Shown piece by piece: positions 36,504 to 50,521 of a DNA stretch of 64,000 nt. Numbering within the stretch: the stretch's first letter is position 1; the number at the start of each line of letters is the position of its first letter. The stretch lies in IMG/VR virus record IMGVR_UViG_3300015608_002982, positions 25,286-89,285 of that record; one strand, 5' to 3'. The stretch comes from a virus. Its lineage: Duplodnaviria > Caudoviricetes. Under the pieces are notes generated by a model. That model was not told the DNA's origin, ran no database searches, and worked only from the letters and a program-made list of their open reading frames with translations. The translations under genes were made by a program, and so were the position numbers.

Positions 36504-36531
36504 ATTTAAAATTTAATTTAATATATACATT

Positions 36532-42846: not shown

Positions 42847-43641
42847 ATGGCAAGAGTAAGAAGAATAGTAGTTAGTCAGGTTGAAGGTGACTATTCAAAT
42901 GATTCAGATAAAAGACCTAATGGTGAAATTGCACTCTATGATGATAATAATGGTGGATTTGACTTAGTTATTCACGATGGTGTTAATGGCACATCCGATA
43001 ATAAAATTCTTGGTAAAGGAAAATTTTATGGACATGGTGCTGATAGTGGCGATGGGAATGGATATAATACTATAAAATTGATACCGGATACTAATCTATT
43101 TGGTAATGATCAATACATTATTGTAGATCCTACAGTACCTGGTCATATTCATTTAAGAGCCGGTGGTCAGATTGATAATTCCAATGCTTATTTATATTTA
43201 GGTGGTGAAAAGTATCATGTAAGGATTGATGATAATAGTTCTGTTACTATGACTGCAGAATCTGGTATAGAAAATCCAAATCCTGGTGATTTACTGCGTA
43301 CTAACTTTTCTGTAATGAGTGGTCAAGTAAGTATATCATACATTGAAAAAGATGCTTTTGGTGGAGAAGATGTTAGATTTCAATGGGACTTTCATCCGGA
43401 TTCGGGGTTAATTCAATTACCTTTTAATGGTGGTGGTATACAATTTGGTGATGAAACTGTACAAAATACAGCTTGGACAGGTGGTAGAGTTGTTGTATCA
43501 CCTACTAGTAGTGTTGGTATTAGTGGTGACTTACAAGGTGACTTAGCATTTAGTTCAGATTATATCTACTATTGTACACAAAACTATGATAGTTCTACAA
43601 ATATCTGGAAAAGAATTGCTTGGAGCAACGATACTTGGTAA
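42847..43641 (+). CDS. Probable tail-fibre-associated protein
   Basis: C-terminal PTSSVGISGDLQGDLAFSSDYIYYC...WKRIAW module typical of phage fibre proteins. Confidence 0.5.
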   Translation: MARVRRIVVSQVEGDYSNDSDKRPNGEIALYDDNNGGFDLVIHDGVNGTSDNKILGKGKFYGHGADSGDGNGYNTIKLIPDTNLFGNDQYIIVDPTVPGHIHLRAGGQIDNSNAYLYLGGEKYHVRIDDNSSVTMTAESGIENPNPGDLLRTNFSVMSGQVSISYIEKDAFGGEDVRFQWDFHPDSGLIQLPFNGGGIQFGDETVQNTAWTGGRVVVSPTSSVGISGDLQGDLAFSSDYIYYCTQNYDSSTNIWKRIAWSNDTW

Positions 43642-43656
43642 TTTAATATATACATT

Positions 43657-44948: not shown

Positions 44949-44978
44949 AAACTTTTCTATAACAAGAAAAGTTTTTTT
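44949..44978 (+). terminator. Probable intrinsic terminator
   Basis: AAACTTTTCT-ATAACA-AGAAAAGTTT followed by TTTT; weak AT-rich stem. Confidence 0.45.
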
Positions 44979-44982
44979 GTTT

Positions 44983-45423
44983 ATGGAAAAACCAAGTAAA
45001 GAAGATATAATGAAAAAGTGGGCACCTATTTTAGGTTCTATGGGTATGACCGGCTCACAATTAGATAACTTATCACAGTTAGCCGAAAATCAATCAAATG
45101 AAATATTAAAAGAAAATACACAAGCATCTGAGTTTCCAAGTATATTACCAATTGCTATGCGAGTAGCCGCTAAAACAATATCAAATGACTTAATATTTGC
45201 TTCACAAGAAGAAATTGATGAAGTTAAAAAGAAAGTCCAGTCTGAAAATCGTGATGGTAAAATTGAAGCTATTATCGAAGGTGGTGAGTTTGTTGAAAAG
45301 AAGTTAGAAGATGATGAAGAGTATAAAGAACTGATGAAGAAAGGTGTTACACCAATGTCTGGGCCATCTGGTACATTATTTTATTTAGATTATAAATATG
45401 GAAAAGACGAAGACAATATTTAA
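44983..45423 (+). CDS. Truncated T4 gp23 (major capsid)-like protein with inserted RDGKIEAII tag
   Basis: KEDIMKKWAPIL, LAENQ, ILPIAMRVAAKTISNDL, GVTPMSGPSGTLFYLDYKYGKD align to gp23 N-terminal motifs; start refined to ATG 44983. Confidence 0.75.
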   Translation: MEKPSKEDIMKKWAPILGSMGMTGSQLDNLSQLAENQSNEILKENTQASEFPSILPIAMRVAAKTISNDLIFASQEEIDEVKKKVQSENRDGKIEAIIEGGEFVEKKLEDDEEYKELMKKGVTPMSGPSGTLFYLDYKYGKDEDNI

Positions 45424-45589
45424 GAGTCCTGGTGTTTATGTAACCGAAAAAGACATAAATGTTATGATTATTCATAAAAGATATCAAAGAAGAATTAAGA
45501 TAGGTAAGATATTTGATATTGAAGTTTCTAATAAGGTAATTATAACATCTACACCAAAAGGCACATCAAACTTTCCACAAATCTGGTGA
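45398..45589 (+). CDS. 63-aa chimeric peptide: tail-sheath-like N-terminus + tag + terminase motif III-like C-terminus
   Basis: FKSPGVYVTEKD; QRRIKIGKIF; KVIITSTPKGTSNFPQIW. Confidence 0.6.
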   Translation: MEKTKTIFKSPGVYVTEKDINVMIIHKRYQRRIKIGKIFDIEVSNKVIITSTPKGTSNFPQIW

Positions 45590-45605
45590 TGAAAACATGT
45601 TAGGG

Positions 45606-45614
45606 TAATATATA
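45606..45614 (+). promoter_or_regulatory. TAATATATA phage promoter motif
   Basis: 5 nt upstream of ATG 45620. Confidence 0.55.
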
Positions 45615-45619
45615 CTCTA

Positions 45620-45955
45620 ATGACAAATGTTTATTTAATATGTGCAGAATTTGAAGGTAGAAGACTGTATAAGATAGGTTACACAAGACGTGATGTCTCT
45701 AAAAGAGTTAAAGAGTTAAAGACTGGAAATGGTTCTGACTTATACATTATAAACTTTTTTAAGTCTAAATGGGGAACTAAAATTGAGGCACAATTACATA
45801 GAACATTTAAAAATAAAAAAATAAATGGTGAGTGGTTTGATTTAACCGATGAAGATGTAAAGTCTTTTATGGAAAAATGTAAATTAACACACGATATGTT
45901 AGAGTTAATAACTACTAACAACACTTACTATTTAGAAACTGGTAAACTATATTAA
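45620..45955 (+). CDS. T5orf172/MUG113-type GIY-YIG-superfamily protein
   Basis: YKIGYT...KRVKELKTGN, IEAQLHRTF, INGEWFDL. Confidence 0.8.
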   Translation: MTNVYLICAEFEGRRLYKIGYTRRDVSKRVKELKTGNGSDLYIINFFKSKWGTKIEAQLHRTFKNKKINGEWFDLTDEDVKSFMEKCKLTHDMLELITTNNTYYLETGKLY

Positions 45956-46267: not shown

Positions 46268-46633
46268 ATGAACGAAGAATCTAAAATAATAACCGCTGAT
46301 ATTGTAGATTACTTAGGTAAGTATGAGAATGGTGTTCTTGTACTATTATCTATTGGCTACAAAGATACATTTACAGAAGGAACAATATACTATTCTGATG
46401 AAATGTTAGCATTAACTGTAGATGAATCTATAGAACAGGATCTTGGAACACCTATTGAATTATGGGATGGCTACCGAGATTTACTTATTTCTATACTTAA
46501 AAAAGTAGTACCTTATAACGAAATAATCAATAGATTAGATGAGATCGACTTTGCTGATTACTTTAAAGATAAAGATGAGGATACTCAGGTTGGTGAAGAT
46601 ATAGATAATAGTGATATTAAACAACCTGAGTAA
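46268..46633 (+). CDS. Hypothetical acidic protein
   Basis: 121-aa ORF in operon. Confidence 0.6.
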   Translation: MNEESKIITADIVDYLGKYENGVLVLLSIGYKDTFTEGTIYYSDEMLALTVDESIEQDLGTPIELWDGYRDLLISILKKVVPYNEIINRLDEIDFADYFKDKDEDTQVGEDIDNSDIKQPE

Positions 46634-46742
46634 GCGCACTCCTTACATTCTATTTTTTCTAATATACACATTTTTTGCAAATTTTCATAACAAATTAAAA
46701 TATTTTAACTATAACTATATATTAAAAAATAACAAACATGTA

Positions 46743-47027
46743 ATGATAATAAGTGAGATATGTATAAGAGGCTTTAAATCTTTTGGTAATAATGAGTCCG
46801 TTCTGAAATTAAATACTGAAAAAGGAGAATTGATTCTTCTTGTGGGAAATAACGGAGCCGGAAAATCACTCATTCCTACTACTGAGATTGAGGTTGAAAT
46901 TAATTTAGAAAATCTAAAATTAAAGGATTTTAATAATTTTTTGGAAATAATGGGGAGGGAAAGGATATATATTGAATATATAAAAGAAAATAACTATTCA
47001 CTATATGAGCAATATATTAATCAATGA
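46743..47027 (+). CDS. sbcC: gp46/SbcC N-extein (41 aa, to Walker A Lys) fused to split-intein N-fragment (46866..47027)
   Basis: MIISEICIRGFKSFGN...LVGNNGAGK then intein block A-like SLIPTTEIEV; start refined to ATG 46743. Confidence 0.8.
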   Translation: MIISEICIRGFKSFGNNESVLKLNTEKGELILLVGNNGAGKSLIPTTEIEVEINLENLKLKDFNNFLEIMGRERIYIEYIKENNYSLYEQYINQ

Positions 47028-48546
47028 AAAACAACTAGAAGATTATCTTTCAGATTTTCATCCAGTTAAAAAAAATGAAATTTTAGAAAAATTCAAAGAT
47101 TTTAATTTTAATTGTGGTAAATTTTCTTTTAGAGATAAAATGAAGAGAATTATATCAATGCCTAAATTTGGCAAAAGGACAATTAATTACTGGGTAAGTA
47201 GGGGATGGTCAGAGGAAGAAGCTTTATTAAAAAGAGTACCTGATAACAGAGATCCTGAAACATCACCAATGAATAAATTTTTTTGGATAAAAAGAGGACT
47301 TACAGAAGAAGAAGCTTTATTAAAATTAAAATCACAAAGAAAATCTAATAAGGAATATTGGACGAAAAGGGGATTTTCAGAAACCGAAGCATTGCAAAAA
47401 TCAGTTGAATTTCAAAAAGACTCTAATTCAGCATTTATTAATAGAATTAACTCAGATATGGATTACCGAGAATTGATAAATTCTAAAAGGAATAATAATA
47501 AAAAATATTGGATCAATCTTGGGTTTTCAGAAGAAGAGTCGATAAAAAAAGTATCGGAGAGACAATCGACATTTTCTTTAAAAAAGTGTTTGGATAAATA
47601 TGGTGATATAGAAGGTCATAAAATTTGGCAAAATAGACAGAAAAGATGGCAAAAATCTCTCTTGCTTAGTTTATATAATGGTAAAGACAATAAGGATTCA
47701 AAGACTATAGAGTTCTTCAAAGGAAAATATAAAGAAAATTGGATAGACCATTACTTTAATAAGATATCATTTAAAGAAAAAGATAAAATATTGTTTTTAA
47801 CATCATTTTATAATTATAAAGATTTAATAGACTCATTAATTGCCGATAAATTGAAATTAGTAGAAATATCATCAATTATTCGGTATAAAATTATACAAGA
47901 GATATATTCTTGTACAATAGATGATATGTTTGAATATTTACATAATAATTATGAAAAATATTCAAAAACACCTGAATATTATCATAAAAATTTCCCCGAT
48001 TGGATAGAAAGATTTATAAATGACAATTCTTTTAAAAATAAAAATGAAATAAAAAAATTATTAAACTTCAAGGATTATAAAGAAATGATTATCTACATGA
48101 TTGATAATTATAAAATTACTGATATAAATATTTATCTACAAAGTAAATTGATATCATATTTTTATAATACAAATCATAAGGAAATGTTCAACTTTTTAGT
48201 AAATAGTGACCCAACAATAAAATCAAAATATGGACATATTAGATATTTTAATGGACACATTTGTCGAAGTGATTCGGAATTTTTATTGGCAAAGTTTTTA
48301 CTTAATAATGATATAAAATATGAATATGAGAAGAGATATAAAAATACATTAAAAAGATGTGATTTCTATCTTATAGATTTTGATCTTTATATTGAATATA
48401 CAGGAATGAAGAAAAATGAAATTTGTAATAAGAAGTATAAAGAGAAACAGAAATTTTGTCTAGAAAATAATATCAATTGTATATTTTCTAACAATATTCA
48501 AGAAATAAAAAATAAAATATTAAATGAAATTAAAATTAACAATTGA
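47005..48546 (+). mobile_element. Free-standing homing-endonuclease-like gene separating the split intein halves
   Basis: Four YWxxRGxSEEEA repeats, two about 70-aa helical repeats, C-terminal RSDSE...RCDFYL...YIEY PD-(D/E)XK domain; GAATATATA at 46974-46982. Confidence 0.75.
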
Positions 48547-50521
48547 ACAATTGAACAAACTTCAAGAATCAATTAAATTAATCGATAATTATGAAATAAA
48601 TGTTTCAACTGAAAATGGATTTAAAAAAATCAAAGCTGTTGGTGTAACAAGTAGAAACTCAGAAAAAATAAGAATTAAAACAAAGGATTTTGAATTGGTA
48701 GGGTCTCCATTTCATAGAGTAAAATATCAAAATAATTGGTTATATCTAAAAGATATTAAAATAGGAGATAAAGTAAATACAAAAAATGGAATACAAGAAA
48801 TTTTAGATATTAGTTTTGATAATAATAAAGAAGACTTATGGGATATAGAAGTTGATGGACATGAATATTATTCAAATGGAATCTTAAGCCACAACTCTTC
48901 TCTACTAGACTCATTTGATTACACACTTTACGGTAAAGTAAGAGGTCGTAAAAAAAGATGGGCTACTTTATCAACACTACCAAATAGAATTAATGGCGAA
49001 CTTCTTAATAGAATCAAATTTGTTTCTAATAGTACAGAGGTTGAAATAAAAAGAGGTATCTCACCAAGCGTACTTGAGTTGTGGGAGAATGGAGTTCTTA
49101 ATGAAAGAGCTGGTAAAGCCAATGTAGATGAAAAGATTGAGAATTACATTGGAATGGATATTGAGACATTCAAATCATTTATTTCAATGTCTATTAATGA
49201 TTTCAAAAATTTTATTTCATTATCAAACGAAGAAAAACAACTTCTTCTTGATAAGTTATTTAATCTTGAAGTCATCAACATTCTCAACAGTATCTTGAAA
49301 GATATTGCTAAAAATAATAAAGTAAGAGCAGCTTCATTTGATGCTGAAATTAGAACTTTAGATGATTCAATTGCCTCTATTAAAAGGTCAATTGAAAAAG
49401 CACTTGAAAGAGAAAGACAAGAAGCACAATTAGCACTTGAAAGAGAAAAAGAAGATATACAAGCTGAGATTGATAGAATTACAAATGAAATGAATTCTAG
49501 AAAAGATGAGTATAAAGCTCTAAAAGAAAAGATTGATAAAATCAAAGAAAAAGATGCTGAACTCGTTGATGAGATGGATAAGGAAAAAAGACAGTTAATT
49601 AACTGTCAAAATGATATCAGAAATGTTCAAAAAGAATTAGACTTGTATGATTCTGGAAAATGTCCGACCTGTAAAACAGATTTCAACTCTGAACACTTTT
49701 CTAATTTAAGAACTACTTTAGAAGAAAAGAAATTAGGATTTGAAAATATCAAACTTGAAATTGAAGCAAACATTACTAAAGTGAAAGAAAGACAAACTAA
49801 GTTAAAATCACTTTCTGAATCAACAACAACTGCATTTAATGATTTAAGTTATTTATTAAAGACTCACAAGTCTGAAATTGACAAACTAAATCAAAAGAAA
49901 GCATCACAGACCGTTACTGTTAATACAACTCCTTCTGTTAATATTCAAGAGTTTCAAAATACAATTGAAGAGCTTGAAGAAAAGAAAATAGTATCAACTG
50001 ATAATATAAGTGTTTGTAAAGAAAAAGAACTTTACTACAAAGAGTTAAATCGTATCTTTGGTGAAGATGGTGTTAAGAAGTCTATTATTGCTGGTATTAT
50101 TAAGCCAATAAACCATTTTATTTCTGAAAATGTTAAAAAGATGGGACTTCCATTTGAAGTTAAATTAGATGAGACTTTTACAGCTGAGATTAAACAATTA
50201 GGTTCATCAATTGAACATGACTCACTTTCTACCGGTGAGACTAAAAAAGTAAATATTAGTATTTTAATTGCTTATCTAAAGCTAATTAGAACTAAACGAC
50301 ATATCAATATTTTGTTCTTAGATGAGGTTTTTTCATCAATTGATATCGAGGGTATAGATTCTATTTTGGCACTCTTAAAATCGTTTGCAAACGATTATAA
50401 CATCAATATCTTTGTTGTACATCATGCTATTTTGAATCAAGAAATGTTTGATAGAATATTAAAGATTAATAAAGAGGTTTTCTCTTCAATAGAAGAAGTA
50501 AATTTGGATTATGCAAGTTGA
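48524..50521 (+). CDS. sbcC: Split-intein C-fragment (48524..48895, 124 aa) fused to gp46/SbcC/Rad50-like C-extein
   Basis: LTIEQL, VSTENGFKKI, SPFH, WDIEVDGHEYYSNGILSHN|SSLLD; zinc hook CPTC, LSTGE signature, LFLDEVF, VVHH. Confidence 0.9.
   Translation: MKLKLTIEQLNKLQESIKLIDNYEINVSTENGFKKIKAVGVTSRNSEKIRIKTKDFELVGSPFHRVKYQNNWLYLKDIKIGDKVNTKNGIQEILDISFDNNKEDLWDIEVDGHEYYSNGILSHNSSLLDSFDYTLYGKVRGRKKRWATLSTLPNRINGELLNRIKFVSNSTEVEIKRGISPSVLELWENGVLNERAGKANVDEKIENYIGMDIETFKSFISMSINDFKNFISLSNEEKQLLLDKLFNLEVINILNSILKDIAKNNKVRAASFDAEIRTLDDSIASIKRSIEKALERERQEAQLALEREKEDIQAEIDRITNEMNSRKDEYKALKEKIDKIKEKDAELVDEMDKEKRQLINCQNDIRNVQKELDLYDSGKCPTCKTDFNSEHFSNLRTTLEEKKLGFENIKLEIEANITKVKERQTKLKSLSESTTTAFNDLSYLLKTHKSEIDKLNQKKASQTVTVNTTPSVNIQEFQNTIEELEEKKIVSTDNISVCKEKELYYKELNRIFGEDGVKKSIIAGIIKPINHFISENVKKMGLPFEVKLDETFTAEIKQLGSSIEHDSLSTGETKKVNISILIAYLKLIRTKRHINILFLDEVFSSIDIEGIDSILALLKSFANDYNINIFVVHHAILNQEMFDRILKINKEVFSSIEEVNLDYAS

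Follow-up and report, generated by a model that had tools for sequence, protein, structure and literature searches.

A 146-residue megaphage protein related to the N-terminal quarter of the T4-type major capsid protein and carrying an inserted tag module

Sequence comparison shows that a short gene of a tailed phage encodes, on its own, a paralogue of the T4-type major capsid protein (MCP) limited to its first ~130 residues, about a quarter of the length. The gene, here called mini-MCP, lies in a 64,000-nt stretch of DNA (the window) that covers bases 25286–89285 of an 89-kb IMG/VR record with a CheckV completeness of 45% (Table 1). Judged against full-length MCPs, its product retains two propeptide helices, the N-arm helix and a pair of short strands at the beginning of the P-domain/E-loop. 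Comparison with relatives marks it as a functional gene under purifying selection, and the protein probably stands in for the MCP, either in head assembly or towards a host factor. We assign the start to ATG 44983 because homologues share the Met encoded there; a TTG at 44977 was ruled out as the start on the same ground.

Table 1. Coordinates of the mini-MCP gene, its parts and its immediate neighbours, in window positions
Feature	Position	Strand	Remarks
Stem-loop	44947..44978	+	11-bp stem and 8-nt loop (T-A-T-A-A-C-A-A) followed by a T run; ends 4 nt ahead of ATG 44983
Mini-MCP gene	44983..45423	+	146 aa plus stop; ATG 44983, TAA 45421–45423
Propeptide-like part, residues 5–44	44995..45114	+	Two helices, invariant K12-W13; aligned to MCP residues 7–45 (hhalign)
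L42-K43-E44 / N45-T46, candidate gp21-type prohead protease site	45106..45120	+	At the position of MCP I-N-E-N
N-arm-like helix and remnant first strand, residues 51–71	45133..45195	+	Aligned to MCP residues 86–107; P56 invariant, T65 nearly so
Inserted module, residues 72–120	45196..45342	+	Absent from MCPs; long helix, G-G-E-F turn, acidic E-E-Y-K-E helix
Tag motif R90-D-G-K-I-E-A-I-I98	45250..45276	+	N89 and R90 nearly invariant in the family
MCP strand motif, residues 121–140	45343..45402	+	V-x-P-M, P-x-G-x-L-F-Y-L-D-Y-K-Y-G; P128, L132, Y134, D136 and Y139 conserved
63-aa ORF	45398..45589	+	Overlaps the mini-MCP stop; paired with it in L013, L014, L016, L017, LR745206 and LR756502
T5orf172/MUG113 (GIY-YIG-like) gene	45620..45955	+	Pfam PF13455 E 6e-21, PF10544 E 6e-13; conserved neighbour

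The likeness to the MCP was established by profile and pairwise comparison. A profile search matched mini-MCP residues 121–144 to positions 82–105 of PHROG 138 (major head protein; E 2.2e-5) and, over residues 121–143 at E 0.02 and 14.7 bits, below the cut-off of 24.4, to positions 26–48 of Pfam PF07068 (Gp23). With a 39-sequence family profile, the sole match in the PDB was the N-terminal 60 residues of T4 gp23, a weak one (E 0.29); the corresponding PDB search with the MCP alignment returned no match even at E 10, and a search of the ESM Atlas gave no usable match. Alignment to the genuine MCP, proposed as a check in the preliminary description of this DNA, was carried out with MCPs of related megaphages: hhalign joined the two families with a probability of 99.7% (E 2.8e-26), mini-MCP residues 5–145 corresponding to MCP residues 7–132. 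Within the single genome LR745206, BLASTP between mini-MCP and MCP gave E 7e-22, and a further BLASTP comparison E 6e-8. Chance similarity is ruled out by the E values of 7e-22 and 2.8e-26, and the four segments that the preliminary description had lined up with gp23 are indeed collinear with gp23-type MCPs, the hhalign comparison being the decisive one.

Relative to the MCP, the mini-MCP departs in three respects. A Gly-rich linker of ~35 residues is deleted, and a 51-residue insertion separates the D-L-V-x-V-K-P strand from the P-G-x-K-I-D-L-L-Y-I-D-F strand (both hhalign), two strands that are contiguous in the genuine MCP. An insert between motifs adjacent in MCPs had been described before, exactly ahead of V-x-P-M; the insert itself holds, and its placement ahead of V-x-P-M is that of the window's sub-lineage, the family alignment putting that piece before the insert in most members. 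The protein ends directly after Y-K-Y-G, that is, after the Y-x-D-x-x-Y-G strand and about ten residues past the second of the two MCP strands. A complete HK97-type body (spine helix, P- and A-domains) is absent, the alignment reaching MCP residues 7–132 only.

An AF2 model built on the 39-sequence alignment (mean pLDDT 67.7, pTM 0.34) places helices at residues 6–19, 25–43, 55–69, 75–99 and 112–120. The tag-bearing helix 75–99 exceeds pLDDT 90, and for the isolated protein the last MCP strand motif is predicted as coil. The corresponding model of the genuine MCP is of low confidence (pLDDT 41.5), with helices at 8–21 and 26–45. Helices joined to an unstructured strand motif are, in this prediction, what one would expect of a piece folding on a partner. 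The structure prediction, likewise suggested beforehand, returned helices plus coil and no globular fold; together with an alignment that stops at MCP residue 132 and the lack of any continuation, it bears out the earlier reading that a protein stopping right after Y-G-K-D has no HK97 shell fold. As modelled, with no globular fold of its own, the mini-MCP cannot form a shell.

The gene is not a broken MCP. When all six frames of the entire 89-kb record were searched with Pfam Gp23, PHROG 138 and a megaphage-MCP HMM, no MCP continuation was detected near it. Syntenic mini-MCP homologues were found by tblastn in LR745206 and LR756502, each of which encodes a full-length MCP as well (560 and 571 aa), about 90–100 kb from the mini-MCP, and two IMG/VR relatives, both near-complete (476 kb and 385 kb), have the mini-MCP and a full-length MCP on the same contigs. 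The full-length MCPs of relatives match Pfam PF07068. A frameshifted or split MCP is thus ruled out, as no MCP-like piece lies nearby and relatives carry both genes. Pairwise dN/dS values between the window and five IMG/VR relatives range from 0.11 to 0.53, and the earlier view that this is not a frameshifted pseudogene stands on these values and on the absence of an MCP in the six frames downstream.

Far from being the single odd gene that it had first appeared to be, the mini-MCP belongs to a large family and to a wider set of tagged mini-genes that copy MCP pieces. The family has 564 members in 90% clusters, the best 120 of which are all 143–169 aa long, and 233 clusters at 50% identity (E <= 1e-3). 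Among the 150 clusters listed, sizes run from 46 to 236 aa and none is MCP-sized, apart from one 2016-aa protein whose match is confined to the module. The dominant order in the listed clusters is K-W helix, L-L-P-I-A-M helix, tag and F-Y-L-D-Y strand; the window protein follows this order with none of the four missing (family members are about 130–180 aa), and the architecture is kept across the 233 clusters, down to about 30% identity. In the 39-sequence alignment K12, W13, P56 and D136 are invariant and T65, N89, R90, P128, L132, Y134 and Y139 nearly so; with N89 and R90 as the only exceptions, the MCP too has these positions invariant (K-W, L-L-P, T, P-x-G, L-x-Y-x-D-x-x-Y). Within the window's sub-lineage, the inserted module is the most conserved segment. 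The reading frame is intact in every relative examined. The mini-MCP of this phage is 43–45% identical to those of LR745206 and LR756502 and 86% identical to that of the 476-kb relative G001, and the MCPs of LR745206 and LR756502 are 70–71% identical to that of G001; the MCP N-terminus is nearly invariant across these phages. We found no published description of the mini-MCP in the megaphage paper on the LR745206 and LR756502 genomes (PMC9723777) or in literature searches on MCP paralogues.

In most homologues the C-terminus is a Lys/Arg-rich tail, about 15 residues long, which overlaps the start of the next gene in those examined (P0007, P0021, L013, L014, L017 and LR745206). The tail is missing in about a quarter of homologues, including the 146-aa form of the window, and in the L017 protein the second propeptide-like helix is missing 22 residues.

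The inserted module carries a motif that recurs across the proteome of these phages. Defined as R-[DE]-x-K-[IL]-x-x-[IL]-[ILF], the tag is strictly matched 11 times among the 108 ORFs of this record, where shuffled sequences lead one to expect 0.33, and occurs in 62 of the 641 ORFs of G001 against 1.2 expected. In 49 of the 62 G001 carriers it is no more than 8 residues from the C-terminus (0.06 expected). In the mini-MCP of the window the tag is instead internal, 48 residues before the end and so outside the C-terminal limit of ~8 residues, and an internal tag is found in 113 of the 150 listed family representatives, which marks it as ancestral in the family. P0129, P0211 and P0266 have two or three copies. 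In P0222 and P0266, internal and terminal copies share the K-L-K-R-I-L spelling, and the C-terminal tags of neighbouring genes are similar. Because in relatives its spelling matches the C-terminal tags of the same locus, we read the internal motif as the same label. Codon usage within the tag varies (AGA/CGT/CGA; ATT/ATA/ATC; TTA/CTT), which points to selection on the peptide. A DNA element is ruled out by this variation and by the in-frame C-terminal matches.

Larger proteins carrying the insert module were sought and none was found, which is weak evidence, and among the larger tagged proteins of G001 a search for a reader of the tag gave no informative Pfam match; the PolB of G001 is fragmented. 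No phage chaperonin was found in relatives. PHROG and Pfam scans returned no portal or polymerase match for the other tagged ORFs of the preliminary description (11396, 16682 and others). At 1403–1855 of the window, a 150-aa protein combines a DUF6011 zinc-ribbon-like domain (E 2e-10) with a C-terminal tag after it, and matches PHROG 20259 at E 5e-39.

Other mini-genes copy other parts of the MCP, likewise with a tag added. Outside the window but in this genome, an 85-aa ORF (G000:C1:11921-12178; L002 1543–1800) is a copy of the MCP C-terminus that matches Pfam Gp23 positions 304–331 (E 0.005) and has a basic tag between its two conserved pieces; close copies occur in G001, G002 and G004. Spine-helix minis are present in LR745206, LR756502 and G002, and an A-domain mini in G001. 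Near its MCP gene, G001 also encodes two MCP-like proteins of ~250–260 aa (69912–70661 and 75556–76338), with a tag or module that is C-terminal in one and, in the other, internal and spelled like that of the mini-MCP. Three adjacent minis in the distant relative L061 (3404–4477), forming an operon beside a UvsY-like gene, represent the spine-helix, C-terminal and N-terminal MCP pieces in that order, and each has the same ~45-aa helical module with a tag; the L061 pieces match the MCP weakly (E 4.5e-4 and 2.8e-3, single comparisons). P0142 is a natural fusion, in which a C-half MCP piece with a tag is joined to an N-terminal mini.

The genes around the mini-MCP are kept in a conserved order: a 103-aa gene, the mini-MCP, an overlapping gene of 63–81 aa, T5orf172, a 90-aa gene and a gp46-like gene. 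In distant relatives, the minis lie near PolB, dUTPase, HNH and UvsY-like genes. In relatives, the overlapping 63-aa ORF invariably accompanies the mini-MCP gene. It starts in a sheath-like way with S-P-G-V-Y-x-x-E, bears the basic tag R-R-I-K-I-G-K-I-F and finishes in a segment similar to terminase ATPase motif III, motif likenesses seen by eye only; it has no Pfam or PHROG profile match. Upstream, the stem-loop recurs in every relative examined (L013–L017, LR745206 and LR756502, besides the window), with C-G to T-A compensatory changes and a loop of the form T-A-T-A-A-N-A-A. Being AT-rich, it was missed by a pattern scan and was recognised by reading, folding and comparison; terminator, attenuator and promoter-in-loop are candidate roles. 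A similar stem-loop lies at genome position 79486 on the minus strand.

Two sequence elements were seen before other genes. T-A-A-T-A-T-A-T-A-C (43640–43656, 45601–45619 and 36514–36531) stands 3–5 nt before the starts of 43657, 45620 and 36532, and T-T-A-T-A-T-A-T-A-G-A-T precedes 37871 and the MCP gene of G001; the two may represent two promoter classes. Further along the window, the gp46/SbcC-like gene is split into an N-piece (46611–47027), ending just past Walker A, and a C-piece (48524–50521; PHROG 77, E 9e-63), which opens with an intein-like segment (end H-N|S); the two pieces flank a 513-aa ORF. The gene is unbroken, at 488–565 aa, in L003, L013, L014, L016 and L017.

The reading we favour, though tentatively, is that of a prohead-associated MCP stand-in trimmed by a gp21-like protease. 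It comes close to the prohead-protease substrate or assembly modulator proposed in the preliminary description, a proposal that gains indirect support from the strongly conserved propeptide-like K-W helix, the retained L/I-x-E and the gp21-like protease of relatives. The mini-MCP would imitate the MCP N-terminus inside the assembling head, its propeptide-like helices and unpaired strand motif docking by strand addition on the usual contacts of the MCP N-terminus, the scaffold or core and neighbouring MCP subunits. The gp21-like prohead protease is predicted to trim it at the retained L-x-E site, the tag helix would connect it to a putative reader of the motif, which about 10% of the phage's small proteins share, and the basic tail of most homologues, lost in the 146-aa form, would face the DNA. 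In T4 the propeptide part exists and acts only before maturation. Several observations favour this reading. The most invariant residues, K12 and W13, sit in the propeptide-like part, and MCP-type residues stay constrained without the rest of the fold, from which it follows that a partner would supply those contacts. At the position of the MCP I-N-E-N segment, 30 of 39 family members keep an [LI]-x-E where 17.3 would be expected, a motif of the form h-x-E-N-T recurs, and relatives encode a gp21-like protease, a domain found in four of them within a 700–727-aa protein adjoining the MCP gene; we infer cleavage at L42-K43-E44. The AF2 pattern is that of a piece folding on binding, the G001 head-gene block (56–81 kb) includes several tagged proteins and two larger tagged MCP-like ones, and most homologues have the Lys/Arg-rich tail.

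Other observations weaken the head-assembly reading. In relatives the gene is about 90–100 kb from the head genes, and its neighbours are homing-endonuclease-like and gp46-type recombination genes here and PolB, dUTPase, HNH and UvsY-like genes in distant relatives, a setting that suits an early or middle, non-structural role. The T-T-A-T-A-T-A-T-A-G-A-T element of the MCP gene is absent upstream of the mini-MCP, and [LI]-x-E is common by chance in sequence rich in E, I and L. Head assembly leaves the sheath-like and terminase-like motifs of the paired downstream gene unexplained, and the window's form has no basic tail.

The same non-structural neighbourhood would fit a decoy or competitor that imitates the nascent N-terminal quarter of the MCP towards a reader of that segment, such as the host factor EF-Tu or a Lit/Gol-type immune trigger at the peptide level, a proposal made in part by the preliminary description and the main rival reading, which we consider somewhat unlikely. 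The first quarter of T4 gp23 binds EF-Tu, and Lit is activated by the 29-residue Gol stretch, where gp23 is most conserved (PMC3014915). The mini-MCP retains exactly the EF-Tu/Gol quarter, with its insert falling within the conserved stretch, and a contiguous ~29-residue Gol-homologous stretch (Gol as defined in PMC3014915) is absent from it, split by the 49–51-residue insert. Such a split stretch would bind its reader without setting it off, or would sequester it. Against a decoy, a Gol-like fragment is expected to activate a Lit-type protease and not to block it, barring an inactivating effect of the insert, and the strongest conservation lies in the propeptide-like K-W helix, outside the Gol region. 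Avs7 also reads the MCP together with EF-Tu, but it recognises the folded A- and P-domains and the E-loop by shape (PMC13581612), and a fold-less fragment cannot mimic that folded HK97 body. A decoy would also agree with the faster evolution of the mini-MCP than of the MCP (43–45% against 70–71% identity, for different phage pairs) and with sibling and neighbouring mini-genes that copy conserved motifs of other core virion proteins. These siblings suggest, too, a multi-piece mimic in which N-terminal, spine-helix and C-terminal minis associate through the shared module and rebuild a partial capsid-protein surface as an adaptor, cap or decoy. The three consecutive L061 minis with their common ~45-aa module, the P0142 fusion and the C-terminal, spine-helix and A-domain minis of this genome and its relatives all speak for such an association; we nevertheless judge it unlikely, as the pieces are dispersed in this lineage, the module is long and acidic here whereas the others bear a short basic tag, the L061 pieces match the MCP only at E 4.5e-4 and 2.8e-3, and the contact of the three pieces in the HK97 fold is putative.

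Two further explanations carry much smaller probabilities. A truncated interaction-domain paralogue follows the logic of microProteins and could interfere, as a dominant negative, with head assembly of co-infecting related phages, provided that the resident MCP has diverged enough to escape; the faster divergence of the mini-MCP would suit this, yet the MCP N-terminus is almost invariant across phages, so that the resident MCP would be hit as well, and nothing links the gene to exclusion, which makes interference very unlikely. A functionless relic, either a decaying MCP duplicate or a flank dragged along by the homing-endonuclease-like neighbour, is brought to mind by the T5orf172 gene 200 nt downstream and by the fact that conserved genes are targets of mobile endonucleases. 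With dN/dS well below 1, an architecture held through 233 clusters to about 30% identity, a frame intact in all relatives examined and an insert that is the best-conserved part, we regard a relic as exceedingly improbable.

Megaphages, which are abundant and uncultured, build and fill shells for genomes of 0.4–0.6 Mb. The mini-MCP family, widespread and under selection, joins the assembly-phase N-terminus of the MCP to a peptide label and offers a handle on the partners of the N-terminal quarter of the T4-type MCP, with scaffold, protease, EF-Tu and immune triggers as candidates, and on what reads the proteome-wide label. Whether as an assembly adaptor or as an immune or host-factor stand-in, the mini-MCP would, if the reading is true, represent a new mode of capsid-protein fragment use, and both readings can be approached with recombinant proteins without phage culture. 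On a more speculative and rather improbable view, the mini-MCP and its siblings would be docking adaptors on the prohead lattice or scaffold, their tags coupling about a tenth of the proteome to it in a cargo-loading or address system undescribed in phages, or else would form a pre-emptive set of immune decoys.

T4 gp23, whose propeptide is removed at Glu65, is among the closest known counterparts. The K-W-x-P-L-L and N-arm helices of its N-terminal quarter, like its V-x-P-M and P-x-G-x-x-F-x-L-x-x-x-Y-G strands, are collinear with the mini-MCP, which differs in being a separate 146-aa gene, with no spine-helix, A-domain and P-domain body, the Gly-rich linker deleted and a tagged 50-aa module added. 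T4 gp24, the vertex protein, is likewise an MCP paralogue kept beside the MCP, but has the full HK97 fold and builds pentons, whereas the mini-MCP is about a quarter of that length and has no such fold. Proteins that act inside proheads include the HK97 delta domain and the T4 scaffold and core proteins gp22, gp67 and gp68 and the internal proteins; the mini-MCP is, like them, a small, charged protein made of helices, its N-terminus is propeptide-like and it has a candidate L/I-x-E protease site, but it differs in showing no sequence relation to them (Pfam, PHROG) and in being encoded outside the head module. Eukaryotic microProteins such as Id and LITTLE ZIPPER are small proteins derived from the interaction part of a larger one, and the mini-MCP could similarly form non-productive or regulatory complexes with its parent or the parent's partners; it belongs to another domain of life and adds a docking motif. 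Finally, although its motif is internal, part of a longer module and without sequence likeness to the C-terminal address peptides of encapsulin cargo loading or the clamp-binding tails of T4, R-D-x-K-I-x-x-I-L resembles them as a short shared label.
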